NCBI GenBank assembly: GCA_964650045.1
Contig: CAZYRT010000006.1
Span: 3,576-67,575, forward strand
Direction: 5' to 3'
DNA from: an uncultured Ruminococcus sp.
Lineage (GTDB): Bacteria; Bacillota; Clostridia; Oscillospirales; CAG-382
DNA length: 64,000 bases
Made by a program: the position numbers and the translations under genes. The notes below the pieces were generated by a model. That model worked only from the letters and a program-made list of their open reading frames with translations. It made no database searches and was not told where the DNA came from. Of the stretch, positions 17,746 to 60,043 are shown in pieces. The number at the start of each line of letters is the position of its first letter. Position 1 is the stretch's first letter.

Positions 17746-17749
17746 TTCT

Positions 17750-19386: not shown

Positions 19387-20512
19387 CCTCTGCCTCTGTA
19401 TTTTCTGATAATTTTTCAAGCTCATCACTATATGAGCTATAGTCGCCAAACACACCGGAATATTCGCTCTTCTTCATGATGTGAATAGCATCTGGCTCAA
19501 TATACAAGCCGATTTTTGCGCCCACGGGCTCAAAATCAGTTGTTTGTATCATCCATTTAAAGCCGTTGATATCAACAATAATTTCGAAATGAACACCTTT
19601 AAAGGTTACGCTAGTAACTTCACCCGAAAGCATTCCCTTTTCGATAGGAACAACGTCAACATCCTCGGGACGGATAACAACGTCAACCGGCTCGTTTTTA
19701 CCAAAGCCTTTATCAAGACAATCGAAGGTCTTACCTGCGAAAGATGCCTCGAAATCCTCAAGCATGATGCCGTCAACAATATTACTTTCGCCGATAAAGT
19801 CGGCAACGAAAGCATTTTCGGGCTCGTTATAAATATCCAAAGGAGTGCCAATCTGTTGAATACGTCCGTTATCCATAACAACAACGGTGTCGGACATCGA
19901 GAGGGCTTCTTCCTGATCATGAGTTACATATACAAAAGTAATGCCCAAGCGCTGTTGGATTCCTTTAAGCTCGTTTTGCATATCCTTACGAAGCTTCAGG
20001 TCCAAAGCCCCCAAGGGTTCATCAAGCAAAAGAACGCGAGGCTTCACCGCAAGAGCGCGTGCAATAGCAACTCTTTGCTGTTGTCCGCCGCTTAATGAAT
20101 TAACATTGCGTCTGTCAAATCCTTTAAGATTAACAAGCTCAAGCATTTCATGAACAGTCTTTTGAATCTCTTTTTCGGATTTTTTCTGCACACGCAGACC
20201 AAATGCGACATTTTCATACACATTAAGGTGAGGAAAAAGAGCATATTTTTGAAAAACAGTATTTATCTGTCTCTCATAAGAAGGAACGTCGTTTATACGT
20301 TTTCCTTCAAACAAAACATCGCCGCTATCCGGCGTCACAAAACCGCCGAGTATACGCAAGGTTGTAGTCTTGCCGCAACCCGAAGGTCCCAAAAGAGTGA
20401 CGAACTCTTTTTCATTGATATCAAGGCTCAGATCATCAAGGATCTGATCATCGTCAAACTTGACGGAAATGTTTTGAAGACGCAAAAGCGCGTTGTTTTC
20501 AAGTTTGTTCAA
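19379..20512 (-). CDS. potA: Spermidine/putrescine ABC ATPase
   Basis: Walker A is GPSGCGKTT, the signature is LSGGQQQR and Walker B is LLLDEP. A C-terminal TOBE-like domain is present. The TTG start lies 7 nt after GGAG. Confidence 0.9.
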
Positions 20513-34734: not shown

Positions 34735-34756
34735 AATATCCTCCTATGAACATTTC

Positions 34757-34789
34757 AGAGAAACGACCTCATAATGAGGTCGTTTCTCT
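34757..34789. terminator. Perfect 15-bp hairpin between the two paralogs
   Basis: The sequence is agagaaacgacctca-taa-tgaggtcgtttctct. It lies 13 nt after the upstream stop and 23 nt before the downstream start. No clean U-tract follows on the minus strand. Confidence 0.45.
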
Positions 34790-34801
34790 TTAATTATGAA
34801 A

Positions 34802-37800
34802 TTATTGAATGTTAATAACTACTTCGCAAGGCTCAGACCAACCAAGATATTCGCTGTATACGAAGCTAAATGTAGTCTCGCCTGTATAATCCTTTTCAGG
34901 ATAGAAATTAAATGTACCATCTTCGTTAATTGTAACAGAACCATGGTCAGCAACCAAATAAACTTCAAATTCGCGAAGCTTTTCAGTATCAAACTCTAAA
35001 GTTCCTGTGAATACTTCATTTTTAGTAGCAGTATAATTAAGATTTTCTAATTTATCAGGGGTATACTGCATATCGCCTTTAATATAATGATATGTTGTAT
35101 CGTAAATAGTACGAGCCATTAAATCGTCAGAATTAGCAGCGTCACGATAAATGAATGTGCTCTGATAATACATATTAACAGCATCATCCATATAACCGTA
35201 TTCAACACCACCGGCAAGATATTGCATATACTTCTTAAAGAACAACTTGTTACGAAGAGCGTCGGTACAAATTTCCATTTCGATACCCATACCGTAAAGC
35301 TCAGTAAACTTAGCGCAGTTAACAACCTTGCTATAGGAAGATACCGCATCAAATACATAGTTAGGCTGCATAACCGCAACGTCAAACCCGTATTCGGCCC
35401 ATTGGTTAAATCCAGGTGCGCAATACCAAGGAATCCAATAGAAATCACGTCCTGTTGCATGAACAAGATCAGCAGTATCATTGATCATATCGTTAGAACC
35501 GCTATCCTTCATAACGATTTCTTCATGATACCAATAGTAGCCGACAAGCTCGATATTCTTGAAGTTAGCTTCTGCAAATCTATTTTCTACTTCATCAATA
35601 TACCACTTGATAGCCTTAATACGATCTGCATAATTAGCAAAGTTTTCAGAAACACCATCACCGTCTACGTCACCAAAGTTTGCGGTATCGGTAGAAGGAT
35701 AGTAAATAGTCATTGTTACTTTATAAGTAAACTCTTCATCAAGACCCAATGCCTGTTTTACTTGTCCCGCAGCTTCTTCCAAAGCCATGATATGTTCACC
35801 TTCGGTAAACAAATCGTTTAATGTCCATTCCCAGTCAGACTTCAAGCTCTTTTCATAGGGATAACCGCCGCTGGGGAATTTAGTATTATTGTAAAGGAAA
35901 AGGAAACTGTCAAACATTACATCCTTAATATTGCCTTCAGTATCAACATAAGCAAGATAAGGAATCAAATCTTCAACCTTATAAGGATTGGTATCGGTAG
36001 TGTGATAAAGCAAGCACAGGTCTTTAGAACCGCCAAGCAAATCTGCGGAAGGTTCCATACGTTTGCCCGAGAAAAGATTCTTCGTAGTGAGACCTGCATC
36101 TGCAGGAGCTACAGCACCGACAGAAGTCTTCTTACCATAAACTTCAAGCTCGTCACAGCCAACCCAAGAAATAACATCAAAGGCAAATGCTACATAACGT
36201 GCTTTCAAAGGTGTTGCAGCAACAAGCTCTCCCTTGTATATAGCGTCTGTACCTTCACCAACCAAATTAATAGTACCTACAGTATACCAATTGGTACCGT
36301 CATCAGAAACATATACAGTAGTAATATCGGGATTATGAACTGCCCATTCTTCTTTGTTTGTAAAGCTTGCAGTAAATTTATCTACATAAGACAAATATCC
36401 AAGGTCAAAAATTACTTTTCTTCCGCTACCGCCATTGAATTTAAAGAATTTACCATTATGAATATCTGTGCTTGTAGCAAATTTTCCGTCTGTAAGCAAT
36501 TTAGATGTAACATCTGTGTTATAGCTATAACTATTCTCACCGGGATCGCTGTCAGCAATAATCTGTTGATCCATGCCGAGAATCAAATTCTGATACTCAT
36601 CGCTTGCTTCGCTTCCCCATTCTGTAACGTTCGTGTCAATTACAGGGGTAGGATAAAGAACTTCGGGTTCTTGGTCACGATATGCGTAAACAGCAACTTC
36701 CTCTACCATGTGCATATTACAATCGGTAGCATACATAGTTATTTCAATATAACGTGCAGATACTGTTTTCTGCAAAGGAAGAGAGAATTTATAATTACCG
36801 TTAGTAACAACTGTGTTACCATAAATAATACCAAGATCGGTACGATTGTTCTTGTTATCAATAGCAGTGATCTTAAGAGCCGCAGGCAAATATATTCTTA
36901 CGGCTGTATTTACAAAGAAGCTAACTTCGACAGCACCGATATCCTTAACGTTTCTTGCAAGATTAACCTTAATAGTTATCTCTTGTCCGCCATTAAAGCC
37001 AACCCATGTTTCACCTTCATAATAGCCGCTGGTCAAACCATCGGTAAGCATCGAGCCGCTATCCTTAAAGTTATCGTTAGTAGTACCGGTAACTTCATAT
37101 TTCTTATCTTGAGAAACCAAAACCTTTGTATAATCACGGATAACATCGTCTCCGTCAGTAGGAGCAGCAACCGCGCCAAGGGTCTGATATGCATTATTTA
37201 CTTCCTCGATAAACTCTTTATTACCTTCGTTTCCTTCGACATCAGCAATAACAGCAACTTCATCAAGGAATACCCAAGCGCCGGATTTACTGATAGAAAA
37301 ACGAATATACTTCGCTTTCACATATTCAGGAACAGAAAGCTCAGCTACTTGCACAGTACCAGCTTGAGCCGAGGGCATTGTCATTGCATCAAATGTGCGG
37401 TCATTACCATCGGCATTAATTGCTTCCCAATTTTGACCGTCCATAGAGGCATATACATAAATAGTACCAGGAGTAGAGATACCTGCAGCAGGAAGAGAAA
37501 AATAGGAAACGGTAAACTTATATATTGTATCAAATTCTCTTCCAAGATCAACATCTACATTTAGAGAAGATACGGTATATCCGGAAAGGGTTTGATCGTA
37601 AAAATTATCTACAGCTACACCCGTTACTCCGTCAGTTAATTCTGTTCCGTAGGAATCGGGGTATTGCGAATCAGCCTCGGTAGGCTTTTTGCCGGAATAA
37701 GTTGTATAAGATGCGCCACCGGAAATTATAGTTTCCTTTGCATCTTCAGCAACTTCAACACTTGTTCTTGTTTCATAAACCTTGGTAGTTTTTGAAACTT

Positions 37801-37936
37801 CTGATTTTTCGTTTTCGCTCACTTCAACAGACGAAGTTTCTTCAGATGAAGTTGTTGTTGATGAATCATCAACACAGGCAACAGCAAAAACAGAAAAAAC
37901 CATTATGATTGCGAGAATCAAAGCAATTTTTTTCAT
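34802..37936 (-). CDS. Large surface lipoprotein (1044 aa), paralog of 31624..34734
   Basis: The lipobox-like sequence is FAVAC. The domain order matches the paralog and roughly half the residues are identical by eye. AKYIRF, ARYIEI, ARYVAF and DVDGDG are present. An AAGGAAG RBS is present. Confidence 0.8.
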   Translation of the reverse strand: MKKIALILAIIMVFSVFAVACVDDSSTTTSSEETSSVEVSENEKSEVSKTTKVYETRTSVEVAEDAKETIISGGASYTTYSGKKPTEADSQYPDSYGTELTDGVTGVAVDNFYDQTLSGYTVSSLNVDVDLGREFDTIYKFTVSYFSLPAAGISTPGTIYVYASMDGQNWEAINADGNDRTFDAMTMPSAQAGTVQVAELSVPEYVKAKYIRFSISKSGAWVFLDEVAVIADVEGNEGNKEFIEEVNNAYQTLGAVAAPTDGDDVIRDYTKVLVSQDKKYEVTGTTNDNFKDSGSMLTDGLTSGYYEGETWVGFNGGQEITIKVNLARNVKDIGAVEVSFFVNTAVRIYLPAALKITAIDNKNNRTDLGIIYGNTVVTNGNYKFSLPLQKTVSARYIEITMYATDCNMHMVEEVAVYAYRDQEPEVLYPTPVIDTNVTEWGSEASDEYQNLILGMDQQIIADSDPGENSYSYNTDVTSKLLTDGKFATSTDIHNGKFFKFNGGSGRKVIFDLGYLSYVDKFTASFTNKEEWAVHNPDITTVYVSDDGTNWYTVGTINLVGEGTDAIYKGELVAATPLKARYVAFAFDVISWVGCDELEVYGKKTSVGAVAPADAGLTTKNLFSGKRMEPSADLLGGSKDLCLLYHTTDTNPYKVEDLIPYLAYVDTEGNIKDVMFDSFLFLYNNTKFPSGGYPYEKSLKSDWEWTLNDLFTEGEHIMALEEAAGQVKQALGLDEEFTYKVTMTIYYPSTDTANFGDVDGDGVSENFANYADRIKAIKWYIDEVENRFAEANFKNIELVGYYWYHEEIVMKDSGSNDMINDTADLVHATGRDFYWIPWYCAPGFNQWAEYGFDVAVMQPNYVFDAVSSYSKVVNCAKFTELYGMGIEMEICTDALRNKLFFKKYMQYLAGGVEYGYMDDAVNMYYQSTFIYRDAANSDDLMARTIYDTTYHYIKGDMQYTPDKLENLNYTATKNEVFTGTLEFDTEKLREFEVYLVADHGSVTINEDGTFNFYPEKDYTGETTFSFVYSEYLGWSEPCEVVINIQ

Positions 37937-45859: not shown

Positions 45860-47047
45860 TTAACCTGTAATACCGCTACGTTCAACACCTTCGATAAGAG
45901 TTCTCTGAGCGAACAGATAAATAATAACAAGGGGAGCAAGAATAAGCAAACCGCAAGTATTCCTGATAGCAGACTCATAAGCAAGCTCTGCAACATAATC
46001 TGTATCCAAGGATTGAGGAATCTTTACGATATTAGGAAGAAGAATTGCATTTCTTGTACTTGTAAAGAACAAGCTGGTATAGAAGGTATCAGACCATTGC
46101 CACGAGAAGGAGAACATGAAAATTGTTACCATCATAGGAACAGCCATAGGAATAATTATACGAACGAATGTCTTAATTACGCCTGCACCGTCAACATATG
46201 CAGCTTCTTCCAATTCATCAGGAACGCCATTGAAATACTGACGCATCATGTAGATGAACAAGCCATTTTTAAATGCCAAACCGGTCAAGGAAAGTACTGC
46301 AAATGGCCAATAGCTGTTAAGCAGGTTAGGAGAATATATTTTCTCGGGATTTGAGAACAATACATCCATAACACCTACATCAGTAATACCCTTATTAGCA
46401 AAAGCTTGAACAAGAGCATCGTAGCCTGCCGAAGCACCGCCGTCATATGTAAGCATTGCAATCAAATTCTTAAAAAGATTAATTGTTCCATCATAGATTC
46501 CAAGAAAGTCAAACGCTTTAAATTTCATAAACATCGAAAGCTGAATGGTTTCATGAGGAACTATCATTGTGAAAATAACGCAAACAAATATAACCTTCTT
46601 GAATTTGAACTTAAACTTTGCAAAACCGTAGCCGACAATTGAACAAATCAAGGTTTGAGATACACCGCATAGCACAGAAAGCAAGGTTGTATTGAACAAA
46701 GCTTCAAAGTAATTGTTGTCGGTGATAATAGCCTTATACGTGTCAAGTGTGGGATTCATAGAGATAAGGTGAACCATTGTATTGGTAAAGTCATCTCTAT
46801 TCATAACCGAGCTGGCGATTTTAGAAATGTAGGGATAGATAATTACATAGGAAATACCTACGAGAAGTACGAATCGAAACAATGCCCAAGCAGCTTTCTT
46901 GGCAAAGTAAAGAGTCAAATACTTATAGCGGAGTCGCATAAGAAAAGGTGTTTTTTCGTCGGATTTGATCCTTTTTATAGCTTCTTCACGTTTGAGCTGC
47001 TTTTGATATTCTTTCAGCTCTTGTTTTGTCATAGTAGAAGTATCCAT
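45860..47047 (-). CDS. Carbohydrate-type ABC permease (MalG-like) with a long N-terminal extension
   Basis: The EAA loop is EEAAYVDGAGVIKTFVRIIIPMAVP. The protein is polytopic. An AAGGAGG RBS is present. Confidence 0.85.
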   Translation of the reverse strand: MDTSTMTKQELKEYQKQLKREEAIKRIKSDEKTPFLMRLRYKYLTLYFAKKAAWALFRFVLLVGISYVIIYPYISKIASSVMNRDDFTNTMVHLISMNPTLDTYKAIITDNNYFEALFNTTLLSVLCGVSQTLICSIVGYGFAKFKFKFKKVIFVCVIFTMIVPHETIQLSMFMKFKAFDFLGIYDGTINLFKNLIAMLTYDGGASAGYDALVQAFANKGITDVGVMDVLFSNPEKIYSPNLLNSYWPFAVLSLTGLAFKNGLFIYMMRQYFNGVPDELEEAAYVDGAGVIKTFVRIIIPMAVPMMVTIFMFSFSWQWSDTFYTSLFFTSTRNAILLPNIVKIPQSLDTDYVAELAYESAIRNTCGLLILAPLVIIYLFAQRTLIEGVERSGITG

Positions 47048-47064: not shown

Positions 47065-48081
47065 TTAAACATCTTTTCTTTGATAGAAGACGTATGCACT
47101 AAGCAATCCGGCAACAAGTGCAAGAACAACGACAACTATCAAGAAGTAAATCCAAGCCATTGCGGTAGAAACTTCTGTGTTACCATTGGAATAAACGGAA
47201 GAAATATAAGACATTACCGCATTTGATTCAGATGTAAAGGAGTCGATAATCGTATAAACGGCATTTACCAAAATCATGGGGCTTATCATCGGGAAGGTAA
47301 TCTTCCAGAAGGTTTCCCAAGAAGATGCACCATCGATATAACATGACTCATAAATTGCAGGAGAGATAGACTGCAAGCCTGCAAGAAAGATCAACATCTG
47401 TACACCGGATTTGTTTACGATGTCATAAACGTTGTTAATAAGGCCGGTTACATAAGTTACAAGCTCGCCGCCGATTTTCATACCTGAAAACAATCTACTG
47501 ATATCCATAGCAGAAACAATGCCTGCACCTTGTGTATCAGCATTAGCACCGGAACCGATAACATCAGAAGAACCTGCTGCAGTATCAACCATGTTCTCTG
47601 CGAGAGAGTTTTGAAGGTCGATAGATTCAATAATACCTGTAGAAACGATAACAGGGATAAAGAATATCGCTCTAAAAATCGCTCTGCCGCGCATCTTTTG
47701 GTTAAGAATAACAGCCATAAAGAGAGAGAAGATTACGATAGCAGGAACATTGAACAGAAGCTCTTTTACACTTGACCAAAGAGTTGTTGTAAACTGCGTA
47801 TCAGTCAAAAGAGCGTATCTGTAGTTTTCGAATCCAACAAACTCAAGAACATAACCACCGGTCTTTTGAATGATGATTTCATTAAATGAGAATGTGATAG
47901 ATTCAACGATCATGGGAAGATAAATTACTAAAAATCCGATTAGGAAGGGTGCTATGAACACCCAACCCATTCTGGACTTTTGAACATCGAGAGAACGCGA
48001 ACGTTTCTTTTCTGCCTTATTGGCTTTAGCCTCTTTTACAGGAGCTGTGTTTTTCTTTTTAATTGTTTCTTGTTTATTCAT
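47065..48081 (-). CDS. Carbohydrate-type ABC permease (MalF-like)
   Basis: The EAA loop is YESCYIDGASSWETFWKITFPMISP. ATG 48081 lies 7 nt after GGAGG and overlaps the upstream stop (TAATG). Confidence 0.85.
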   Translation of the reverse strand: MNKQETIKKKNTAPVKEAKANKAEKKRSRSLDVQKSRMGWVFIAPFLIGFLVIYLPMIVESITFSFNEIIIQKTGGYVLEFVGFENYRYALLTDTQFTTTLWSSVKELLFNVPAIVIFSLFMAVILNQKMRGRAIFRAIFFIPVIVSTGIIESIDLQNSLAENMVDTAAGSSDVIGSGANADTQGAGIVSAMDISRLFSGMKIGGELVTYVTGLINNVYDIVNKSGVQMLIFLAGLQSISPAIYESCYIDGASSWETFWKITFPMISPMILVNAVYTIIDSFTSESNAVMSYISSVYSNGNTEVSTAMAWIYFLIVVVVLALVAGLLSAYVFYQRKDV

Positions 48082-51014
48082 TATACACCCTCCCATGTTA
48101 TTGCTTCGCCATTTGCAGTAACTTTTACATATCCGTTAACAGGAACAACGATATCTGTACCTTCAACAGAATATGCCTTCTCGCCATAGTTTACATAGAA
48201 TACAACATCGTTATAGTATGTAACTTTAGCAACCTTGCCGTCTTCAGAAAGAATTTCATGCTTTCTGATTGCAGAGTATTTAACATCAGTCAAAGCATCA
48301 TTTACTGCGTTATATGCAGCAATGATATCATCCTTCCAGATATTATAACGTACAGAATAATACTTGTCAACTGCAGTATACTGATACTGTTTAAGCTCAG
48401 AAGTATTATTAGCAGCAATTACAAAATAGGGAGAAGCGCCGCTTTCAATAGTCTTAAGCAAATAGTAATCGTAGTCACCTGCAAGGTTAAGAGCGTTACC
48501 TGCATATTCTTTATATCCATGCAATACCATGCTCATGAAGGGTACGGTTGCATAGGAGTAAAGCAATCTGGAGTCATCCAACGGAACTTCAAGAATATCG
48601 GTAGCATAAGGCAAGGTATACTTATTACCTGCGGTAACAAGAAGTTTGTTATTACCATTATTCTTGATTTTTTCAAGCAATTGAACTATAAGTTCCTTAG
48701 AATCTTCTCTTGAAAGAGGATTATCAGGATCAAAGTCAGAAGAAAGATATTTGCCAAGTGTACCTACAGAAATGGCACCTACATTGAATTTGCTGTAATC
48801 TTCATTAGCAGAATCATAAAGCTCATTCATAAAGGAAGGAGAAATGATACCTTCACCCGTTTTAATAAATGACTGAGTGGCAGGATCGTAATCTTGTCTT
48901 ACAGAAGGACGTTCATCAATGGACTCAGACAAATCTTCATAAGTGTCGAATCCGTCGAATGTACCGTCGTTGTAAGCAAGAGAAAGCTCAATATCAGGGA
49001 AAATGGTAAAACCGTTTTGATTTGCATAATCAATAAGCTGTTTGAAGCCTTCTTCCCCACCGAGAACCTTTTCAACATCAATCGAGGTAGCAATATCGGG
49101 CATCAAGCCATCATTATACCAGCCCTGCATCTTAACCTTGATATTAGTAATGCTATCTTCGCCGTTGTCTTTAAGACCGCTAAGAATATCAATTGTATCC
49201 TGGAAAGATGTAAGAGCGATTGTAGAAAGTACAGGAACACCAAGTATAGACTTTGTTGTTTCAAGAGCACCAAGTGTTTCAAGATAGAGAGGAACATTAG
49301 CATCACCGCTATTATCTATCTCTGTAAGTACTCCGGTATTTTTAAGATATTCTCTATACGCAGCCGCCATATCGGAATATGATTTATCAGCATCGTAAAG
49401 AGCAGTAGCTTCATCTCCGTCTTCAGTACCGTCCAAAATGAACAATCTTAACTTGAAGTCACCGGTATACTTACGTTTGGACTCAACAGTCCACATCGCG
49501 TTAGTACCTACCGAAAGACCGCCGTCGAGTACATAGGAGTCCTTAGGACGGGGGTTGAAGGAAGTGTATATAGATGCATAGTTGTGAACAGGACCACCGT
49601 AGGAGATGTTGATCTTAGCAAGAGAGTCGCCCTCTTCAATAACTGCAAGATATGCAATTTCAAGAGGAACGTCAACAAGAACAGTTTCAGTCACAACATT
49701 GCCGTCTTCATCGTAAACGGGTTGACCGTTTTCATCAAGAACTTCCTTCACTTCTTCCTTCTTGCTATCCTTTTCAACACGCTGGTATACGCCGAATACA
49801 GGAAGTCTTGCAACTTCGCTATTTGCACCGGTAATTGTATGATAAGCATAGTCCTGACCGTACAGGCTGCTTGTATTAGTGAACTGTCCGGAAAGGTCAT
49901 CAAAGGAAATCAAGGACCCCGAACCATCGGGAGAGAAAATATAACCTGAGTTATTAACGTCACCTGCTCCGCCGTAAGGAAGAACAAGCACGTCGGAAAG
50001 CTTATAAACAGAGGAGTCGAATCTGATGTTACCAGCATTACATCTTATAGTGATCTGTTCGCCGTCAACCTTATATTCAAGAGCAAGTTTGAACAAAGGA
50101 GGAACATCGTCAGATGCAACATAATCTGTTTCAGAGTGGTCAGCTTCGAGAGTATCGTAATCGTAATCCGTGTAGGTCTTTACGTACTTTTCAAGCTTCA
50201 AAAGCTCCTGAGAGGAAATTGTAGGTTCACAAACATATATCGCAAATTGCTTTGTGATAGGATAGTTTGTTTCCATTTCCTTTTTACTCTTATCAGAAAG
50301 AGTAGAAGAATTCAAGTCATTCAAAACATAGAATGCCTTAAATCTTTCAGCAAGATATGCAGAGCCTTCAGAAATTTGAGTGTAAAGAGCATCGAATTTT
50401 TCGGCTCTAATTACACGAGGAACAAGATATGTTACCTGCTCACGACCGATGGTATATTCTACACGAACACCACCGCGGATATTCTTTACGGTAATCTGCT
50501 GTCTTGCAGCAGCATCTGCAAAGGAACTCATCTGAGAATCTTTATCACTCTTAGAATATTTAATTATGATCTGGGAAAGCAATTTCTGCTTTTCAGATGC
50601 ATCAGTTCCCTGTGTTTGGTTTTTTGCACGAGCAGCACCCGCGTTGTAAGGATTAGTGCAATAGAACGCGGTATATTCAGGAATAGAACCGCTTTCGACA
50701 ATATCTTCTTTTGTTAATGTCTTATCTTTAAGGACGAGGAAAATCATTTCACCTGTGAGAGTATCACCGTAAAATGCATATCCATCAATAACAGTCAAAA
50801 GATCCATAGGTTCGATTTCACCGCTGCCAAGAATACGTTCCTTAACAGAACTAAAAGCTGTATTCATGTAAGCAGGTTTAACAGTAGCTTCCCAAATATC
50901 ATCCCATGTGACCTCGTCATCATCTGCAGCAGATGCCATCAAACCGGTCATTGAGGAAAACAGCATGAATGCACAGAGAGTGAGTGCAAGCAACTTAATA
51001 AATTTATTTTTCAT
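48081..51014 (-). CDS. Large secreted protein (~977 aa) of unknown function (possibly DUF5696-like)
   Basis: The signal peptide is MKNKFIKLLALTLCAFMLFSSMTGLMASA. I found no recognisable catalytic motif. The C-terminal half has an alternating strand/helix pattern. Start ATG 51014 is preferred over GTG 51026. Confidence 0.7.
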   Translation of the reverse strand: MKNKFIKLLALTLCAFMLFSSMTGLMASAADDDEVTWDDIWEATVKPAYMNTAFSSVKERILGSGEIEPMDLLTVIDGYAFYGDTLTGEMIFLVLKDKTLTKEDIVESGSIPEYTAFYCTNPYNAGAARAKNQTQGTDASEKQKLLSQIIIKYSKSDKDSQMSSFADAAARQQITVKNIRGGVRVEYTIGREQVTYLVPRVIRAEKFDALYTQISEGSAYLAERFKAFYVLNDLNSSTLSDKSKKEMETNYPITKQFAIYVCEPTISSQELLKLEKYVKTYTDYDYDTLEADHSETDYVASDDVPPLFKLALEYKVDGEQITIRCNAGNIRFDSSVYKLSDVLVLPYGGAGDVNNSGYIFSPDGSGSLISFDDLSGQFTNTSSLYGQDYAYHTITGANSEVARLPVFGVYQRVEKDSKKEEVKEVLDENGQPVYDEDGNVVTETVLVDVPLEIAYLAVIEEGDSLAKINISYGGPVHNYASIYTSFNPRPKDSYVLDGGLSVGTNAMWTVESKRKYTGDFKLRLFILDGTEDGDEATALYDADKSYSDMAAAYREYLKNTGVLTEIDNSGDANVPLYLETLGALETTKSILGVPVLSTIALTSFQDTIDILSGLKDNGEDSITNIKVKMQGWYNDGLMPDIATSIDVEKVLGGEEGFKQLIDYANQNGFTIFPDIELSLAYNDGTFDGFDTYEDLSESIDERPSVRQDYDPATQSFIKTGEGIISPSFMNELYDSANEDYSKFNVGAISVGTLGKYLSSDFDPDNPLSREDSKELIVQLLEKIKNNGNNKLLVTAGNKYTLPYATDILEVPLDDSRLLYSYATVPFMSMVLHGYKEYAGNALNLAGDYDYYLLKTIESGASPYFVIAANNTSELKQYQYTAVDKYYSVRYNIWKDDIIAAYNAVNDALTDVKYSAIRKHEILSEDGKVAKVTYYNDVVFYVNYGEKAYSVEGTDIVVPVNGYVKVTANGEAITWEGV

Positions 51015-51035
51015 AATTCTATACACTCCTTTCTA

Positions 51036-53228
51036 TTACCATCGCTGTGATAGCTCAACATAAATCTGGTTGAAGAATGCAACAACTCTCATAATAAGAG
51101 TGGAGAACAGTCCAGCCAAGAAGATTATAAATGCCACGCCTACGATTGAAACAATTGTAGTGATTACATTCTTGCCGAGAGTATAATCGTGTGTAACCAT
51201 CATTCCGCAGAATACAAGCAGGAACAACCAAACAAATGCAAAACTTTCAATCATACTAACTAATTCAAGCTCGGTGATTGTCAAGAAATTAGAAATCAAA
51301 ACCGAAGGAATTATAAGCATGGGAAGAGGAACAAGAGAATAACAGGTTGCTATGAAAACATCCTTAAGGCTGCCTTCGCCCTCGAAAAGTGTGGTAATAC
51401 ACCAGTTAGCGATTACCCACAAAACAACAGGTGCAAGAATAGATACAGCAGACATGAAGAAGGATGTTGTGTTACCCTGAGGATTGGACAAATAGCCCTT
51501 GCCCACAGACTGATATACAAATGTTACAGCAGTAACAGCAAGCCAGAAAACCGCACCGCGAATTGAACCGCGTTTTTCGTGCTTCAAATCCCAGAAACCA
51601 TCAAACGGATGGAAAATTATATGGAAACCATAAAGAATTTCCTCCGCGAAGGTTCTGTTATCCTTCATTTTTTGTCCTGCTTTGTTTACTTTATTTGCGT
51701 AGCCAAAGAATTTCATCAATCCAAAGATAACAGCAAAGAGTACAACAGGAATTACCCAAAGGTATTTTTCCATCCATTCTTTACGGTAGGATTGGAACGC
51801 CTCAGAATAGTCTTCAGTATTGTAAGCATACTTATAATACTTCATAGCCTGATCGTACTTACCGTCACGATACAAGCTGTCTGCTATTCCTACATATGCA
51901 GCATCATAGTTGTTATTACGCTGAAGAATGCTTACATAATAGTTAACTGCGAGGTCATACTGCTTATCTTCAGTATTTTGAATAGCCGCAGCAAGCAAAT
52001 CACCATAACCTGTACGCTTTAAAACAGTAATGGAATTATTAGCTCTATCAAGCAAAAGCATGTTAGTATCTTGATAGTCAATAGCAACAAGGTTAGCTAT
52101 ATTACCAAGCTGAGTACCCTTATCACCGAAGGCAAAGAGAAGATTACCTGCGGAATCATAAGTGAATACCCTACTGCGATTATTATCGATGATACTCCAA
52201 GTATTGTTCGGACCGAGAGCAACGTCAACGATAGAAGAAGGACCGCCTTCGGAATCGGAACCGACAGTAGTACCCATATCGATCTCACCGATAGGAGCCC
52301 AGAAGCCGTTTCTTACCATGACGTCAGTACCGTTGGGATTAAGCTTCTTAACAGGAGCATATTCGCCTGTCTTATCTTCGGCACTGATAGAAGAAAGAAT
52401 AGCTTCAGCATTTGTAGTTACATAAATAAAACCGTCTTTATCAATACAAAGATTATTAAATTCGGTTGAAACGTTAGATTCACTGGCTGCTCTCTGTTCA
52501 GCTGTTTGGAAAAGTCTAAGGAAGTATTCCAAAGCATCGTAAGTAACCTTTTGAGGACCAATAAATCCGTTAAATGAACCGTCACGGTTAATGGAAATTA
52601 CACCGTAGTTGGTTGTGGAAGATACAACATAAATACGGCCTGCCTTGTCAACCGCCAAAGCAACAGGAGTATAAATGCTGTTTTCAGGAAGAATTTCACT
52701 TGCAGGCTCGGGAACAATATCAACAAAGTTACCAAGCTTATCAAAAATTACAATTCTTGAATTGTTAGTATCAGCAACATAAATTTCAGTATCGGTAACA
52801 AAGACGCCGTTAGGAGCACTCAAGCTATCGGGTACACCAAATTTATTTGTAAAACTATCAATTACGAGACGAATATTAAACTCTTCATCAGTAACAACGA
52901 TCTCGTTGTTATTTGTGTTTGCGATATAAACATGACCAAGATCATCTACAAAGATATCCTTAGGCATATTCAATCCTGTGAAAGCACCGGTATTAGCATA
53001 ACGAAGCTTTGCATTATCGCTTGCGCCGCCATCGGGCTCCAATGAAGCCAAAAGTGTAGCACTATCGATAATCTTAACAGGAGTATACGCATCAGGGCTA
53101 CGCATCATAAGCCCATCAACGCCGTAGGTATATGTAGTATAAGGTGTAATCGCGCTTGCGGAGATAGTGCCAACCAGCATTATCAAAACAAGACCGACAA
53201 GCAGCACTTTTGTGATTTTGCTTTTCAT
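51036..53228 (-). CDS. Fusion protein: signal peptide, NHL-repeat beta-propeller, TPR-like segment and C-terminal Yip1-type polytopic membrane domain
   Basis: NHL-like repeats include HVYIANTNNNEIVV, IYVADTNNSRIVIFD and RIYVVSS. The TPR-like segment is YDAAYVGIADSLYRDGKYDQAMKYYKYAY. About 6 C-terminal hydrophobic helices are present. A GGGGGAAG RBS is present. Confidence 0.75.
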   Translation of the reverse strand: MKSKITKVLLVGLVLIMLVGTISASAITPYTTYTYGVDGLMMRSPDAYTPVKIIDSATLLASLEPDGGASDNAKLRYANTGAFTGLNMPKDIFVDDLGHVYIANTNNNEIVVTDEEFNIRLVIDSFTNKFGVPDSLSAPNGVFVTDTEIYVADTNNSRIVIFDKLGNFVDIVPEPASEILPENSIYTPVALAVDKAGRIYVVSSTTNYGVISINRDGSFNGFIGPQKVTYDALEYFLRLFQTAEQRAASESNVSTEFNNLCIDKDGFIYVTTNAEAILSSISAEDKTGEYAPVKKLNPNGTDVMVRNGFWAPIGEIDMGTTVGSDSEGGPSSIVDVALGPNNTWSIIDNNRSRVFTYDSAGNLLFAFGDKGTQLGNIANLVAIDYQDTNMLLLDRANNSITVLKRTGYGDLLAAAIQNTEDKQYDLAVNYYVSILQRNNNYDAAYVGIADSLYRDGKYDQAMKYYKYAYNTEDYSEAFQSYRKEWMEKYLWVIPVVLFAVIFGLMKFFGYANKVNKAGQKMKDNRTFAEEILYGFHIIFHPFDGFWDLKHEKRGSIRGAVFWLAVTAVTFVYQSVGKGYLSNPQGNTTSFFMSAVSILAPVVLWVIANWCITTLFEGEGSLKDVFIATCYSLVPLPMLIIPSVLISNFLTITELELVSMIESFAFVWLFLLVFCGMMVTHDYTLGKNVITTIVSIVGVAFIIFLAGLFSTLIMRVVAFFNQIYVELSQRW

Positions 53229-53239: not shown

Positions 53240-54157
53240 TTAATCCTTCATACCGGATGCAGACATTGTAGTAATAACGTTACTCTGAGTTACTACGAAT
53301 ACCAAAATCGGTACTATCATCATTACAACGGTAGATGCGGCAGATACACCGGAACGTGCAATACCTGCAGTTACCAACTGGCTGATCGCATAGTTGAAGG
53401 TTTTGAGCTGTTCACTATAAATGTAGAGGTTTGCACCCATGTGCCACAAATCTTTAAATACGAAGATTATAAGAGTGATCCATGCGGGTTTAACCATTGG
53501 CATCGCAATCTTCCAGAAGATAAGGTTTTCGCCGGCGCCTTCAAGACGAGCACTTTCAAGAACGGAATCGTTTACAGAAGTTTCCATAAACTGTTTCATC
53601 AAGTAAAGACCGAAGGTGTAGCACCATGCAGGAACAATTACTGCCAAGTAGCTGTCAACCCAACCGAGAGCTGACATAGTGATAAAGTTTGTAATACCGG
53701 TAACAGTAGAGTTAAACATCAAAGAATAAACAACTACCGAAAACAGGAATTGTCTACCGGGGAACTTAATCTTCGCCAATGCATACGCTGCATAAGAAGC
53801 CAAGATAACGTTACCAAAGGTACCCATACCGGAAATAAATACAGTATTGAATATGTATCTGGAGAAAGGTACCCATGATTCGTTCATAAGGTTGAACAAA
53901 TCTTTAAAGTTTTTAAACGTAGGATTTACCACGAAGAAACGCGGAGGAAATACAAACAATTCATCAAGGGGCTTCAAAGATTGGCAAATAGAATATACCA
54001 AAGGCAAAACCATTATTACAGCAATAATCGCCAACATAATGAAGATACCAACATCGCCGCCCTTGGAACGGTTAATTGAACGGGTAAACTGAGTTTTGTT
54101 TTGAAGTCTCTTATTGCGGTAGCGAACGTATTTAGATTTTAATTCAGCAAAATTCAT
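53240..54157 (-). CDS. Carbohydrate-type ABC permease (MalG/UgpE-like)
   Basis: The EAA loop is ESARLEGAGENLIFWKIAMPMVKP and the protein has six TM helices. Confidence 0.9.
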   Translation of the reverse strand: MNFAELKSKYVRYRNKRLQNKTQFTRSINRSKGGDVGIFIMLAIIAVIMVLPLVYSICQSLKPLDELFVFPPRFFVVNPTFKNFKDLFNLMNESWVPFSRYIFNTVFISGMGTFGNVILASYAAYALAKIKFPGRQFLFSVVVYSLMFNSTVTGITNFITMSALGWVDSYLAVIVPAWCYTFGLYLMKQFMETSVNDSVLESARLEGAGENLIFWKIAMPMVKPAWITLIIFVFKDLWHMGANLYIYSEQLKTFNYAISQLVTAGIARSGVSAASTVVMMIVPILVFVVTQSNVITTMSASGMKD

Positions 54158-54158
54158 A

Positions 54159-55094
54159 TTACGTACCTACCTTTCTAAGCATTTTAGTAACAAGCATGTT
54201 AGCACCAATCATCAAGAAGAAGAGGATGGTAGCAATCGCGGAAGCATAGCCCATTTCAAAACGTGAGTTACCGTAGTCTTCCAAATGGTGCATTATTGTA
54301 TGAGCACAGTAGTTAGGGCTGGGGAAACCAACGAGGGCGGTAATTACAGCACCAAAACCAAAGGACTGTGTAATAGCAAGAATAGCACCGAGCATCATTT
54401 GAGGACGCATTGTAGGAAGCGTAATGTACCAAAGCTCTTGCCAACGGTTTTTAACACCGTCAACCGCTCCTGCTTCATAAAGGGACTTATCAACTACCTG
54501 GAAGCCTGCGATAAAGGTAAGGAACGAGGTACCGAGGGAGGTCCAAAGAGCAACTGCAATAATCAAGGGGAAAATGTATGTTTCATCTTGGAACCAAAGA
54601 ACAGGTTCAGTGAGCAATCCCAACTTCTTACCCCACGCATTAACGAACCCATATTGGTCAGAGGAAAATAAAATGGTCCAAATGAGGTAAACGTTACCGG
54701 AGATCGAAGGAGCATAGAACATAAGTGTCGCAACAGCTCTTACCTTAGGACGAAGTTCATTGATGAACCATGCAAAAAGCATGGACAACAGATAAGAACC
54801 GGGACCTGTGATCATAGAAAACTTAAAGGTATTAAGAATAGCGGTGATAAAGATATCGTCATCCAAGAGAAGTCTGATATAGTTATCCATGAAAATGAAA
54901 TCAGGCCATTCCAAAAGGTTGAAAGAGGTAAAGCTAAGAATAAAGGAAAGTACAACAGGAAGAACAGTAAAGGTGAAGAAAATCAAGAAGAAAGGAAAGA
55001 CCATGAAATAGCCTGCCTTGTTTTTCTTCATTTCGTTTATAGTCCACTGGAAGCGAGTCATATCACTTCTGATGACAGCTTTTTCTTTTGCCAT
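54159..55094 (-). CDS. Carbohydrate-type ABC permease (MalF/UgpA-like)
   Basis: The EAA loop is YEAGAVDGVKNRWQELWYITLPTMRP. Its ATG overlaps the SBP stop (TAATG). Confidence 0.9.
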   Translation of the reverse strand: MAKEKAVIRSDMTRFQWTINEMKKNKAGYFMVFPFFLIFFTFTVLPVVLSFILSFTSFNLLEWPDFIFMDNYIRLLLDDDIFITAILNTFKFSMITGPGSYLLSMLFAWFINELRPKVRAVATLMFYAPSISGNVYLIWTILFSSDQYGFVNAWGKKLGLLTEPVLWFQDETYIFPLIIAVALWTSLGTSFLTFIAGFQVVDKSLYEAGAVDGVKNRWQELWYITLPTMRPQMMLGAILAITQSFGFGAVITALVGFPSPNYCAHTIMHHLEDYGNSRFEMGYASAIATILFFLMIGANMLVTKMLRKVGT

Positions 55095-58000
55095 TATTCA
55101 TTACCTCCCTTCTCCCAATTAGGATATTTCTCTTCTACAACAGACTCCATATCTTTAATATCATCCGATGTAGGCAGCCCAAACTCTTCTCTCTTGCGCG
55201 AGAGTTCAACATTAATGTCGGTAATTTGTGACTGAAGTTCTTCGACAGGTTCAGCATCCTTGTTAATAACATCGAGGAACGCAAAGCTTGTATGACGTGA
55301 TGTGATGTAACTTCCGGGGTATTCGGGAGTACAAGCAACTGCCTTAAACTGAGAGAACAAATTGTTGTATTCATCTGTAGACCAAGCCATATTTGCAAGA
55401 GCTTCAATGTTTGCGGTAGGCTGCTTAGCGGAAGGACCGAGAAGAGCAACCATTTCATTACCGTAAGCACTTTGAATCTCAGAGCTGAGATACCATTGCA
55501 TAAATGCCCATGAACCAAATGCAGCTACAGGATCATCACTTACGGAATTCATCATCATAATCGCGGATACCGCACCAATGGTAACGTTATTGATTTCCTG
55601 AGTAAGCTCATCAGCAGTACCGGGAAGAGGTGTAAATTCCCAAAGACCATTGATTTCGGGGGCGAATACGATAAGAGTATTGTAAGAAGTATAGTCAGCG
55701 ATCGCCAAGGGCATTTCACCTGAACGGAAACGGTTTGCAAAATCGTATACTGTGGGGAAACTGTACATTGTAAAGAATTGGCATACATCCTTAAATGTAG
55801 CAAGAGCAATATCCGAATCGAGGTTAATCGTCATACCGTCTGTCTTAGGTCTAACATTACCCTCATCATCAAGATATGTCCATCCCTTAGCCGCAATCTG
55901 TGCATCAACCTCTGCAAGCTGCTCGTCGGATATATTACTATAGTCACCTTCATAATAATATCTACGGAAAAGTTCCATATAGTAATCATAATCACCTTGG
56001 TCATACAAAGGTTCATCCTGCTGATACATCATAATGATAGAACCGCCTGTACCCTGAGGGAAACCGATTTCCAACGCGTTGGATTGCAAAGAATAGATTA
56101 TATCGTAAAAGTCATCCCATGTATTAGGAATTTCGACACCCAACTCAACAAAAATATCTTTACGATAGAACATCATCGAGAAGGACATTGTTGCAGGCAA
56201 AGCATAAGTCTCACCATACAATGTCAAAGGAACGAGAGCTTGTTCAGCAAACCAACCGGTTTCCTTATCGGTAATCTCGTCAAAGCTCTTTACAGTACCG
56301 TTTTGGATAAGCTTGCTAAATTGAGGATATTTAGCTTCGTCATTCCAAATAGAAGATTCGAGATCGCTAAAGTCGTATCCTATAGAAGTATCGCCTGTCT
56401 TAGTATTAAGAGAAAGAACAGCGGAACGAATAGCATAGTTAACAGGATCCCCCTGTGCAGCGCCCATATATACATCGGGACCTGTTCCGGAAAGTGTAGC
56501 AGGAAGCAATGTACCACCGGCAACAAGCTTAATGTTCACTTTAATACCGGGATGGTTGGGAGCAAAATTATCGTCAACCAAAGTTCTCAAAATTTGAGCC
56601 TGGTCACGAGAAGTCGCAGTCCACACTTCAACAGCAACATTAGAAGTATCGTCCCCTTGTGTTGTTGCACCAAGGTTGTTATAGTCGCTGAAGAAAGACT
56701 GATAGAACTTCTGGATTTCATACCACAAACCTCCCCAGAAACCGGGTTCAGCCTGAGGTGCTTCCGATTGAACAGCCTGAATGCTGATATAGTCAATATC
56801 AAGAGGCTGGTTCTGTGTATCGGAAAGCCAAGAACCGAGAGACGCGCTATAGTCCTTAAGTGTTGTCATATTTGCTGCGATTTCGTCAGGAAGAGTACCC
56901 ATACGCTCACAAATAAGCGCAACACGGTCAAGAGTTGTTGAATGTTCACCCTTTTCACCTACAAGTTCAGTGAGAAGGTTAGACACACGGTAAAGCTGTT
57001 CGGATTCATATTTCAATCCGTTAAGAACATCAGGAATAAGCTTATCAAAGCTATAGTCACGGTATTCATCAGCATCAGGACCGGTGATCATAAGTATTTT
57101 TCTATAGTAGCCGTTTATAGCAGAAAGAGAGTTTTCAACGGTACTGAGAACTTCAGACATGTCACCAAGAACAACTTCGAATCTAATGATGTTTTCACCT
57201 TCTTTAAGATAGAACTTAAAGTCTGTGGTGCCATCGTTCAAAGGCTTGGTCTGCCAATCCGCAGAATAATTAAATCTCAAATTTCCTGCTTCAGCAAAAG
57301 GCAATTCACCGTTGATATAAATTTTTCTGGAAACATATATACCGGAATAATAGTTCTGTTGGCTCCTGGGAATAATAGAATAGAAACCTTCTTGAGGGAC
57401 ATTGACTTTCCATTCGATCCACTGACCAACATACTGCCATTTATCACCACCGATTTCATTGAGACGGATAAGTGCAGCATCCTGAGGTTCAGAATAACTG
57501 GAAGATCTGTCATTCAAAGCATAAATGGTATTGCCGGAAGTACAAATAGGATATTCAGCCTGAATCTTATAGCTTTCAGCACCAGTGTAATCAGTTACAC
57601 CCATGTTGGTATATTTCTGAACATACTGCTCATAGGAAACAGTTTCCTCAGCAGCAACAAGTTTGATGCTCTTGATAGCCATAGGCTCTCTTATAGATTG
57701 GAAGCTGATAGTGTGTGTACCTGCAGAAAAATAGAATGATAAAGGTTCGCTGTAATAACCTGTAGAGTCATACACGAATTTATCAAGCCATGTTTCAACA
57801 AGCACTTTGTCAGGTTTCAACTCATTCCCATTGGTATCCTTAAAGAAAAGACGATCGCTGTCTACGGCGAGATTAGCTTGGTCGGTAACGAACTGCTTGA
57901 ATTCATCACTGGTAGACAACAAGTAATCTTTTGTAACACCGTCTTCCTTATAAATATAGTTACCGTTCTCATCCGCACGAGAATAAGCATCTGCCCACAC

Positions 58001-58558
58001 TTTATCGAATTCAACCGAACGTGCTTCCTTATAAGGAACCAGTCCGTCGATAAGAACATATCTTTCAGCAGCAGACGATTTAGCAATGAGATTGTCTCCG
58101 TAATTAAAATCACCGGTGTAATATTCGACCTTAATGTTATATCTAACATCCTTTTCGAAGTTCACAGTCCAAGTAACAGTACTGTTGTCACCGCAAATGA
58201 GAACCGCGCCGTCACTACCACCGAGACCATCGGTAACAACCTCAATTGCGCCGGAAGACCAGATTCTATCTTCGTCTTCTTCGCTCAATTCGCCTTCGGG
58301 CTTAATGTCATAGTTGGTGATATCTATCTCCAGTTCTTCGCCCATCGGAACATTACCGTAAATGCTCATGTACTCGTCGTAAGTGGTAGCAGTAAGAACG
58401 CTCTCCACGTCTTCCAACGAAGTACGGTAAATGGACTCGTTGCCGTTGAAGTAATCACCCACAGCCGAAGCACTAATCCCGCCGAAGCTCGTCATTAAGA
58501 TCGAGAACAGCAGCAGATAAATGCAAAAACTTTTGGTTTTTCTCCTGTTTCCAGTCAT
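55094..58558 (-). CDS. Giant (1154 aa) extracellular solute-binding protein with a ~600-aa N-terminal extension containing CBM-like beta-sandwich modules
   Basis: The signal peptide is type I (..GGISASA) with no lipobox. N-terminal segments such as GQWIEWKVNVPQEGFYSIIP..IYINGE..LKEGENIIRFEV resemble CBM6/35-type modules. The C-terminal ~550 aa look like a family-1 SBP. An AGGAGG RBS is present. Confidence 0.8.
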   Translation of the reverse strand: MTGNRRKTKSFCIYLLLFSILMTSFGGISASAVGDYFNGNESIYRTSLEDVESVLTATTYDEYMSIYGNVPMGEELEIDITNYDIKPEGELSEEDEDRIWSSGAIEVVTDGLGGSDGAVLICGDNSTVTWTVNFEKDVRYNIKVEYYTGDFNYGDNLIAKSSAAERYVLIDGLVPYKEARSVEFDKVWADAYSRADENGNYIYKEDGVTKDYLLSTSDEFKQFVTDQANLAVDSDRLFFKDTNGNELKPDKVLVETWLDKFVYDSTGYYSEPLSFYFSAGTHTISFQSIREPMAIKSIKLVAAEETVSYEQYVQKYTNMGVTDYTGAESYKIQAEYPICTSGNTIYALNDRSSSYSEPQDAALIRLNEIGGDKWQYVGQWIEWKVNVPQEGFYSIIPRSQQNYYSGIYVSRKIYINGELPFAEAGNLRFNYSADWQTKPLNDGTTDFKFYLKEGENIIRFEVVLGDMSEVLSTVENSLSAINGYYRKILMITGPDADEYRDYSFDKLIPDVLNGLKYESEQLYRVSNLLTELVGEKGEHSTTLDRVALICERMGTLPDEIAANMTTLKDYSASLGSWLSDTQNQPLDIDYISIQAVQSEAPQAEPGFWGGLWYEIQKFYQSFFSDYNNLGATTQGDDTSNVAVEVWTATSRDQAQILRTLVDDNFAPNHPGIKVNIKLVAGGTLLPATLSGTGPDVYMGAAQGDPVNYAIRSAVLSLNTKTGDTSIGYDFSDLESSIWNDEAKYPQFSKLIQNGTVKSFDEITDKETGWFAEQALVPLTLYGETYALPATMSFSMMFYRKDIFVELGVEIPNTWDDFYDIIYSLQSNALEIGFPQGTGGSIIMMYQQDEPLYDQGDYDYYMELFRRYYYEGDYSNISDEQLAEVDAQIAAKGWTYLDDEGNVRPKTDGMTINLDSDIALATFKDVCQFFTMYSFPTVYDFANRFRSGEMPLAIADYTSYNTLIVFAPEINGLWEFTPLPGTADELTQEINNVTIGAVSAIMMMNSVSDDPVAAFGSWAFMQWYLSSEIQSAYGNEMVALLGPSAKQPTANIEALANMAWSTDEYNNLFSQFKAVACTPEYPGSYITSRHTSFAFLDVINKDAEPVEELQSQITDINVELSRKREEFGLPTSDDIKDMESVVEEKYPNWEKGGNE

Positions 58559-58588: not shown

Positions 58589-58608
58589 TAGCTAGGCACA
58601 ACTAGCTA
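58589..58608. promoter_or_regulatory. Perfect 7-bp inverted repeat (TAGCTAG-N6-CTAGCTA) between the -10 element and the RBS of the operon
   Basis: Read directly from the sequence. It is a candidate operator or 5'-UTR stem-loop. Confidence 0.35.
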
Positions 58609-58624: not shown

Positions 58625-58653
58625 ATAATAGCACATTGATAACTTTTTGTCAA
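58625..58653 (-). promoter_or_regulatory. Sigma-A-type promoter of the seven-gene operon
   Basis: On the minus strand it reads TTGACA, a 17-nt spacer, then TGcTATTAT, about 65 nt upstream of the ATG at 58558. Confidence 0.5.
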
Positions 58654-59086: not shown

Positions 59087-60043
59087 TTAGGGTAATTTTA
59101 TTGTTACAATATAGCCGTCAGATCCATCTCCCGAAACCTCATATTTATACGAAGAATCAACGGGAACATTCACATAAGTTGTATTTGCTTTTTCATCTCG
59201 AGGAACATAATAAACAACATATTTCGCCCCCATGTCATTAGCAGCTCCGCTTTCAAATTCAATAACCTTCTTGGTTTTTATTTCGTCAATATATTCTTCT
59301 AAAGACAAGTTATGAAAACTCATGTACCAACTATGAGCAATACCTACATATCGATATATCGAAGGATCAGCATCAAAACCTGTATAAACCTCTTTTCCAA
59401 ATGGATAACGTTCTATCAGTCCATATTCATAGCTTCTGTCTCTCAAATAGCTGTATTCAGCATCGGAAAAACTGTATGATCCGGTGAAGATAGTTAGTTC
59501 AAATGATAATCCTGTTGCCAATTCTATTTCAGGCTCGGATATATCAATAACGTCAGGAGAAACATATCCGTTTAAAATGCCGACACCATTTTGGGGAACC
59601 TCATCATAGAAATCCAATATCAGTTTATCAATATTTATAATGGCATCTTCATAGGCTATCAAGCTATAATCGCGCAAGCCGTACTTATCCGATGAACGAA
59701 CCGCAGCAACATTTGACAATGTATCTTTATCGATCGCTGTAATTTGATTCTTATTTTTAAGCAAAGCCAAATTGCCTTTATATATCTTATCATTAGTAAA
59801 CGCACAGTTGCTCATTTTAATATTGTCATAATATTTATATTCCTGTTCCGGTTCGGACACAGCCTCGGAAACGATTTCGCTCACTACATAGCTCGATTCA
59901 GACGATCCAGAATAAACATCAGAAACAACATCCATTTTTTCATCACCAAACTTCCCCAACGCAACAATATATGATGAAAGCACTATTACAGATATTACGG
60001 CAGTAATAAGAAAAGCGGATGATGTTTTATTATTCTTATTCAT
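59087..60043 (-). CDS. Membrane-anchored VanY/LdcB-like (peptidase M15B) domain protein with substituted zinc ligands
   Basis: An N-terminal TM helix is present. The C-terminal block YEYGLIERYPFGKEVYTGFDADPSIYRYVG..LSLEEYI matches the VanY signature. However, SEH..D reads SEPEIELATGLSFEL and EPWH reads DPSIY. Confidence 0.7.
   Translation of the reverse strand: MNKNNKTSSAFLITAVISVIVLSSYIVALGKFGDEKMDVVSDVYSGSSESSYVVSEIVSEAVSEPEQEYKYYDNIKMSNCAFTNDKIYKGNLALLKNKNQITAIDKDTLSNVAAVRSSDKYGLRDYSLIAYEDAIINIDKLILDFYDEVPQNGVGILNGYVSPDVIDISEPEIELATGLSFELTIFTGSYSFSDAEYSYLRDRSYEYGLIERYPFGKEVYTGFDADPSIYRYVGIAHSWYMSFHNLSLEEYIDEIKTKKVIEFESGAANDMGAKYVVYYVPRDEKANTTYVNVPVDSSYKYEVSGDGSDGYIVTIKLP

Follow-up and report, generated by a model that had tools for sequence, protein, structure and literature searches.

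An NHL-propeller protein with a Yip1 membrane domain is probably an extra subunit of a conserved CUT1-type import cassette in Gram-positive bacteria

Type I ATP-binding cassette (ABC) importers are taught as a binding protein together with two permeases and two ATPases, and the family-level role of eukaryotic Yip1/Yif1 proteins is in Rab and vesicle traffic, which is not expected in a bacterium. In Bacillus subtilis, YknW is the fourth component of the ABC exporter YknWXYZ, where it affects either YknX's oligomeric state or the interaction between YknX and YknYZ, and BawG-type Yip1 genes occur together with ABC exporters in clusters for leaderless or circular bacteriocins. On the import side, the periplasmic metallochaperone AztD of the zinc ABC importer AztABCD passes its ligand to the binding protein; its fold is reportedly a beta-propeller. 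Herein we analysed a 64,000-nucleotide (nt) stretch of an uncultured Ruminococcus sp. metagenome-assembled genome (MAG; contig CAZYRT010000006.1), referred to as the window, to which all positions below refer. Our subject is a single 730-codon open reading frame (51036-53228, minus strand), the product of which we call the NHL-Yip1 protein since it joins an NHL beta-propeller and TPR repeats to a Yip1 membrane domain. We conclude that this protein probably serves as an additional, so far undescribed subunit of a machine for carbohydrate uptake. Our literature searches found no paper on its partner family DUF5696 or on the gene cassette described below, with YknW and BawG as the only precedents. 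Bacterial Yip1 domains had been called essentially uncharacterised in a first-pass annotation of the window, a statement that misses both B. subtilis YknW and the BawG-type proteins.

The NHL-Yip1 gene belongs to an operon of seven minus-strand genes, spaced between a 16-nt overlap and a 17-nt gap, in the order giant solute-binding protein (SBP), permease A, permease B, NHL-Yip1, DUF5696, permease C and permease D. The gene had been described as sitting between two permease pairs, and all four of these neighbours do match BPD_transp_1. In the same order of bacteria, the NHL-Yip1 gene was found in 93 of 201 genomes, and the same seven genes in the same order were recovered at all 20 loci that were fetched, from many families. 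The neighbours were kept, as far as the contigs reach, in 80 of 80 named loci from species-representative genomes (MAGs from gut and rumen that carry the labels Clostridia, Eubacteriales or Oscillospiraceae), and the set of cassette genes is the same in each of the 14 loci from other families in the phylum. In three of the latter (L120, L121 and L125) the cassette is circularly permuted, with the NHL/Yip1-DUF5696-permease C-permease D block preceding SBP, permease A and permease B. The phylogenetic profile that had been proposed as a check therefore gives a non-random link to ABC permeases, which holds in 114 of 114 inspected loci (20 from the order, 80 named MAG loci and 14 phylum-wide) and extends across the phylum. 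The family itself is large: a word-based search returned more than 2700 relatives, the best 120 of which were nearly all full length, an exhaustive search gave at least 1381 clusters at 50% identity (E ≤ 1e-30), and the conserved Yip1 peptide pattern alone was present at no fewer than 600 genomic loci. Members of 776-998 amino acids (aa) contain no informative extra domains, only more NHL-like or unassigned sequence. No conserved flanking glycosidase, regulator or ATPase was found, and 100 loci were flanked by variable housekeeping genes (e.g., RNase H, NifS/NifU, MnmA, AlaS and PFOR).

The association with DUF5696 is closer than that with the permeases at large. Across 401 genomes of the phylum, NHL-Yip1 and DUF5696 occurred together in 31, NHL-Yip1 alone in one, DUF5696 alone in one and neither in 368 (Fisher p = 5.5e-44, a value that ignores genome relatedness; the positives span 19 genera), and their copy numbers are equal within genomes (e.g., three and three in G244 and G254). 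In the NHL-Yip1-only genome (G471) the match was a short NHL piece only, and in the DUF5696-only genome (G547) DUF5696 and permeases C/D are directly preceded by a diverged NHL-TPR gene and a Yip1 gene. This half-cassette (L131, G547:C60:203001-223000) carries NHL-TPR at 7565-8548, Yip1 at 8873-9235, DUF5696 at 9807-11429 and permease C/D-like genes at 14716-16487, with no giant SBP or permease A/B within 10 kb, which means that the invariant core consists of NHL-TPR, Yip1, DUF5696 and the permease pair C/D. The proposal of a ligand-capture or assembly factor for "the permeases" was thus right about the transporter link, although the tighter partner is DUF5696 with permeases C/D rather than permeases generally. 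Two outcomes were looked for, a lack of profile support for the domain assignments and a random distribution with respect to permeases, and neither occurred. Chance juxtaposition of the genes was rejected, as synteny and co-occurrence are near absolute.

The NHL, TPR and Yip1 domains named in the first-pass annotation are borne out by Pfam, by a profile built from 44 homologues and searched against the PDB, and by Foldseek. In Pfam, the NHL-Yip1 protein matches Yip1 (PF04893) at 56.7 bits (cut-off 28.6) over residues 536-704 and profile positions 2-171 of 173, a match likewise seen in its homologues, as well as NHL (PF01436) at 45.4 bits (cut-off 20) in two stretches and, at the borderline, TPR_19 (PF14559) at 25.7 bits (cut-off 25). 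The 44-homologue profile retrieved Pizza designer propellers (E 8e-33), the extracellular NHL sensor domain of Mycobacterium tuberculosis PknD (1rwi, E 7e-16), the NHL domains of TRIM/Brat proteins and consensus TPR proteins (E 1e-18 to 1e-11), and no solved chain was matched by the Yip1 part. An AlphaFold2 (AF2) monomer model (predicted local distance difference test, pLDDT, 81.2; predicted TM-score, pTM, 0.67) was matched by Foldseek to the six-bladed NHL domains of TRIM71, Thin and Brat with TM-scores per target (TMt) of 0.71-0.76 and E down to 4.6e-15, the value of ~0.76 being that of TRIM71.

The architecture that emerges differs in its details from what had been proposed. The claimed signal peptide can be read directly from the sequence (residues 1-26, 53151-53228), with cleavage predicted between MKSKITKVLLVGLVLIMLVGTISASA and I at ISASA, a type-I-like ASA site without a lipobox; hydropathy peaks at residues 9-27, and AF2 places a helix at 4-20 followed by a low-confidence linker. 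The predicted extracytoplasmic part that follows (residues 27-405, 52014-53150), supported by Pfam, PDB profile and Foldseek, comprises N-terminal strands with a conserved PYxxYTY (27-85) and the six blades of the NHL propeller (86-405), which are split by a conserved helical insert (225-335) that carries FLRLFQTAEQ and KKLNPNGTDV. Blade motifs noted earlier lie at 101-112 (YIANTNNNEIVV), 150-163 (YVADTNNSRIVIFD) and 198-204 (RIYVVSS). The propeller therefore stands, whereas its extent of about 400 residues of NHL-like repeats does not, being ~320 aa plus a 58-aa N-terminal segment and including the helical insert. Next come ~2.5 TPR hairpins (residues 406-488, 51765-52013; TPR_19, PDB profile and AF2), five helices (407-420, 424-437, 442-454, 458-467 and 471-488 in AF2) that would lie beside the outer membrane face, and transmembrane (TM) helix 1 (TM1), which is predicted to run from outside to inside (residues 489-517, 51678-51764; hydropathy 2.38 at 490-508, AF2 helix 492-517). 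A basic loop with the motif HPFDGFWDLKHEKRG (residues 518-555, 51564-51677), defined from the alignment and placed in the cytoplasm by the positive-inside rule, precedes the five TM helices of the Yip1 domain (residues 556-730, 51039-51563; Pfam and AF2), modelled at 556-576, 590-615, 621-646, 654-680 and 684-729. The C-terminal block of about six helices is hence Yip1 as proposed, but its helices are arranged as one plus five, parted by a basic loop of ~46 aa.

Using a diverse alignment (A2, sequences 29-49% identical to the NHL-Yip1 protein), we found that this cytoplasmic loop is the best-conserved segment of the protein, with a mean identity of 0.44 versus 0.21-0.40 elsewhere and 0.38-0.40 in the propeller blades. 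The conserved motifs of the Yip1 domain, NWCxTTLFxGEGxxKD (608-623) and HDY..KN (680-687), are both predicted to lie at the inner membrane face. The propeller region is net acidic (35 K/R vs 61 D/E), which suggests that it faces outside, and since the ectodomain is acidic and the loop basic, the positive-inside rule leads us to infer that propeller and TPR face outward and that the loop is cytoplasmic. The same boundary is visible in how the gene breaks. Among the 114 loci, the gene is fused in 97 and exists as two adjacent genes in 17, where the Yip1 gene lies within 21 nt of the propeller-TPR gene or overlaps it. All 17 split propeller-TPR genes keep TM1 as a C-terminal anchor and end 10-57 residues after it, so that the break always falls in the cytoplasmic loop. 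Such repeated fission and fusion is a classic sign of two halves acting as one unit.

The closest partner, the DUF5696 protein (981 aa, 48081-51026, minus strand; PF18952 at 486 bits), starts 9 nt past the NHL-Yip1 gene and has a signal peptide and no lipobox. Its AF2 model (pLDDT 87, pTM 0.83) shows a beta-sandwich, a TIM barrel and a second beta-sandwich in a GH129/GH101-like fold, for which the best Foldseek match was ZgGH129 (5opq, E 8e-30, TMt 0.71), followed by NagBb (5wzn), GH101, GH31 and GH36. A single-sequence search of the PDB gave no match, and the family profile matched GH129 NagBb (5wzn) weakly (E 9.5e-4). As modelled, DUF5696 folds like GH129 alpha-glycosidases, sharing the three-domain fold of ZgGH129/DagB (5opq) and NagBb, and its catalysis is putative. 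It differs from the GH129 enzymes in being only 10-13% identical to them, and in its candidate carboxylates: among 101 homologues, D764 (the best nucleophile candidate) is conserved in only 88%, D817 in 57% and E861 in 97%. Some DUF5696 orthologues (L076, L089, L099 and L109) reach 1700-1980 aa, about twice the usual length, with long C-terminal extensions. By a crude regular expression applied to orthologues whose N-terminus could be recognised, a lipobox was missing from 82 of 94 giant SBPs and from 76 of 81 DUF5696 proteins. As most of them lack a lipid anchor, both proteins would escape from a Gram-positive cell unless they were retained.

All four permeases match BPD_transp_1 above threshold and have readable EAA-like loops, which implies that both pairs should couple to ATPases. 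The operon itself contains no ATPase gene. A TOBE_2 match in the window was considered as an MsmX-type partner and rejected, as it is PotA of a complete PotABCD-type spermidine/putrescine ABC importer (16489-20512, minus strand), and no TOBE-type ATPase other than PotA was found in this MAG, which is 74% complete. In eight of eight genomes from the same genus, OB_MalK-type ATPases were present at unlinked loci.

As the NHL-Yip1 gene always lies beside genes for a glycosidase-shaped protein and sugar-importer channels in Gram-positive bacteria, we are confident that the protein is functionally coupled to the cassette, which we class as a CUT1-type importer whose accessory subunits form a new set. 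We favour the view that it is a fixed accessory membrane subunit of this CUT1-like import cassette and most likely acts as a scaffold, a reading in which our belief and our doubt are evenly balanced. According to this scaffold reading, the NHL propeller and TPR array would stand on the outer membrane face after export, held by TM1, with the five-helix Yip1 domain in the bilayer beside permeases C/D and its best-conserved motifs at the inner face. The propeller-TPR part would hold the unanchored DUF5696 protein, and possibly the giant SBP, at the mouth of permeases C/D, so that a surface-captured glycan could be processed or passed directly to the translocators, and an unlinked MsmX/MalK-type ATPase would energise transport. 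Several observations weigh against the scaffold. Some lineages with a lipobox-bearing SBP or DUF5696 still keep the propeller-Yip1 gene, so tethering cannot be its sole role; the best-conserved part of the protein is cytoplasmic, which a purely external tether does not account for; an MsmX-type ATPase was not found in this MAG, which is 74% complete; and the flanks in this lineage are housekeeping genes, without glycosidases or regulators to indicate a substrate or nutritional role. A more far-reaching form of the same idea is a multi-subunit monoderm ABC importer with the Yip1 protein as an integral subunit, whose propeller-TPR holds a GH129-fold protein over a dedicated permease pair and thereby physically couples surface processing to translocation, and this we regard as possible though doubtful. 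If true, such a machine would be a Gram-positive functional counterpart of the Bacteroidota Sus-type machines, and would provide the first defined biochemical role in import for a bacterial Yip1 domain.

Other explanations assign the ectodomain or the membrane domain a different task. The propeller might itself bind a glycan or glycan-derived ligand in a lectin-like manner, as a membrane-fixed second receptor feeding the SBP or the permeases. It is well conserved and predicted to face outward, the PknD extracellular sensor domain is its nearest structural relative in bacteria, and AztD offers a precedent for a chaperone that passes ligand to an ABC binding protein; moreover, the second, normal-size SBP found with permeases C/D elsewhere has been lost in this lineage, so something must feed that pair. 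We nevertheless consider ligand capture unlikely, because the propeller-Yip1 gene is retained just as much at loci that have the second SBP, the TPR repeats point to protein partners, no carbohydrate-binding family was matched and the conserved blade positions are mostly the structural Asp, Gly and Arg of NHL repeats. Should the weight instead be placed on the membrane half, the Yip1 domain may serve as an assembly or stability factor that helps to insert, pair or stabilise both permease heterodimers without being a stoichiometric part of the transporter, much as YknW influences the assembly of YknXYZ. The strong conservation of the cytoplasmic juxtamembrane motifs fits membrane contacts rather than external ones, but a large conserved ectodomain is then left unexplained and the linkage to DUF5696 is tighter than that to permeases A/B, which makes an assembly factor rather improbable.

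The layout of the protein also resembles that of PknD, in which one TM helix joins an NHL sensor to a cytoplasmic effector. A ligand on the propeller could act by way of TM1 and Yip1 as an on/off switch for the importer, and the conserved cytoplasmic loop would be in keeping with this. A gate or sensor of this kind has little to recommend it, given that the loop of only ~46 aa takes the place of a cytoplasmic output domain and that no regulator is conserved beside the cassette; a sensor for transcriptional signalling was rejected outright, as an output domain is missing. The first-pass annotation had argued against an enzyme, which is consistent with the absence of any enzyme-family match. The contrary case, a six-bladed lactonase, lyase or esterase-type catalyst (SMP-30/SGL or Vgb-like) acting before import, could draw on homologues labelled gluconolactonase/SMP-30 in databases, on a few relatives with borderline SGL, Arylesterase or Phytase-like Pfam matches (SGL at or below the cut-off) and on the Vgb lyase among the distant fold matches. 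However, the NHL-Yip1 protein has no SGL match at E ≤ 0.01, its NCBIfam matches are far under their cut-offs (ScyF 56 bits vs 350) and no conserved set of metal-binding or catalytic residues was identified in the alignments. A catalytic propeller is accordingly very improbable in our estimation.

The remaining genes of the operon are those of a CUT1-like importer. Its first gene encodes the giant SBP (1154 aa, 55094-58558, minus strand as for all genes of the operon), which has no lipobox. Its N-terminal ~600 aa are without a family match, and its C-terminal part resembles sugar SBPs through weak matches to TIGR03850 (4.7e-5), AcbH and other sugar SBPs (1.4e-4); the orthologue in Caldicellulosiruptor kronotskyensis matches SBP_bac_1 at 6e-31. 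Permease A (311 aa, 54159-55094) is MalF/UgpA-like in its BPD_transp_1 domain, has the EAA loop YEAGAVDGV and is 41-70% identical across the order and the phylum, and permease B (305 aa, 53240-54157) is MalG/UgpE-like with the loop LESARLEGAG. Permease C (343 aa, 47065-48096) overlaps the DUF5696 stop, has an enlarged extracytoplasmic loop (~150-235) and the EAA loop YESCYIDGAS, and matches BPD_transp_1 only in residues 234-337 on profile positions 69-174. The last gene encodes permease D (395 aa, 45860-47047), MalG-like (2e-17), where BPD_transp_1 covers residues 137-381 on 175 profile positions; it has an inserted extracytoplasmic loop and a canonical EAA loop (EEAAYVDGAG).

Upstream of the operon, a promoter-like site (58625-58653, minus strand) reads TTGACA-17-TATTAT with a TG extension and agrees with the consensus at 11 of 12 positions, which is a consensus match only. 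An inverted repeat (TAGCTAG-N6-CTAGCTA, 58589-58608) lies between this site and the start of the giant SBP, and may be an operator or leader hairpin. A perfect sigma-70 consensus (TTGACA-17-TATAAT, 12/12; 48342-48370, minus strand) in the 3' end of DUF5696, ~250 nt upstream of permease C, could be an internal promoter for permeases C/D; promoter-like sites are not enriched in the region as a whole (28 found vs 39 expected). Just upstream of the operon is a gene for a VanY/LdcB-like membrane-anchored protein (59087-60043, minus strand; 77 bits vs a cut-off of 425), a homologue of which occupies the same position in 12 related loci. Elsewhere in the window (31624-37936, minus strand), two adjoining genes encode secreted proteins of ~1040 aa with almost no family match, apart from one weak match to a tandem-95 repeat.

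Cultured carriers of the cassette were found in both gene forms. Caldicellulosiruptor bescii and C. kronotskyensis have the fused form (716 aa), and Paenibacillus taichungensis, P. odorifer and Thermoanaerobacterium have the split form; database labels on their proteins read "YIP1 family protein", "NHL repeat-containing protein" or "gluconolactonase". The C. kronotskyensis cassette (L117, 5-4480) is extended by another SBP_bac_1 protein, of 601 aa, and then by an enzyme with GH43, CBM_4_9 and GH43_C2 domains, and this GH43 neighbour suggests an arabinan- or xylan-type substrate for that copy. Loci of Paenibacillus and Thermoanaerobacterium, and others at the phylum level, also have a second SBP of normal size; an SBP of normal size lies directly upstream of the NHL gene in L120 and L121. 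The second SBP is absent from the window, and 100 loci of the same order gave no clear match (one weak match). The range of carriers takes in uncultured Clostridia of gut and rumen as well as Caldicellulosiruptor, Thermoanaerobacterium and Paenibacillus. Sugar uptake in Firmicutes would gain an unstudied layer from three strictly conserved extra proteins, and the cassette may point to a major way of acquiring glycans that has been overlooked, of relevance to gut and rumen ecology and to biomass conversion. It would also give bacterial Yip1 domains a testable role. Several carriers are cultured and genetically tractable.

Set against the described systems, the NHL-Yip1 protein resembles YknW and BawG in being a polytopic bacterial Yip1 protein whose gene accompanies those of an ABC transporter, as an additional component outside the canonical set. 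Those two proteins, however, are ~220 aa long, have no ectodomain and serve MacB-type exporters with a membrane fusion protein, whereas the NHL-Yip1 protein has a 460-aa propeller-TPR ectodomain, an additional TM helix, type I (BPD_transp_1) importer permeases and a GH129-like partner. With PknD (1rwi) it shares a six-bladed NHL propeller outside a monoderm-type membrane on a single TM tether, although PknD couples its propeller to a cytoplasmic kinase and the NHL-Yip1 protein couples it to a Yip1 membrane domain in a transporter operon. AztD is similarly an extracytoplasmic accessory encoded with an ABC importer, but it is soluble, binds metal, lacks a membrane domain and shows no sequence relationship. 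Taken as a whole, the cassette compares to the CUT1 importers (MalEFGK2, MsmEFGK and UgpABCE), with which it has in common MalF/MalG- and UgpA/UgpE-like permeases with EAA loops, along with a putative sugar-SBP fold and a putative unlinked ATPase. A canonical CUT1 importer consists of one SBP, two transmembrane domains and two nucleotide-binding domains, with no Yip1, propeller or GH129-like part, while the cassette described here combines two pairs of permeases with three further large proteins, always in a fixed order.

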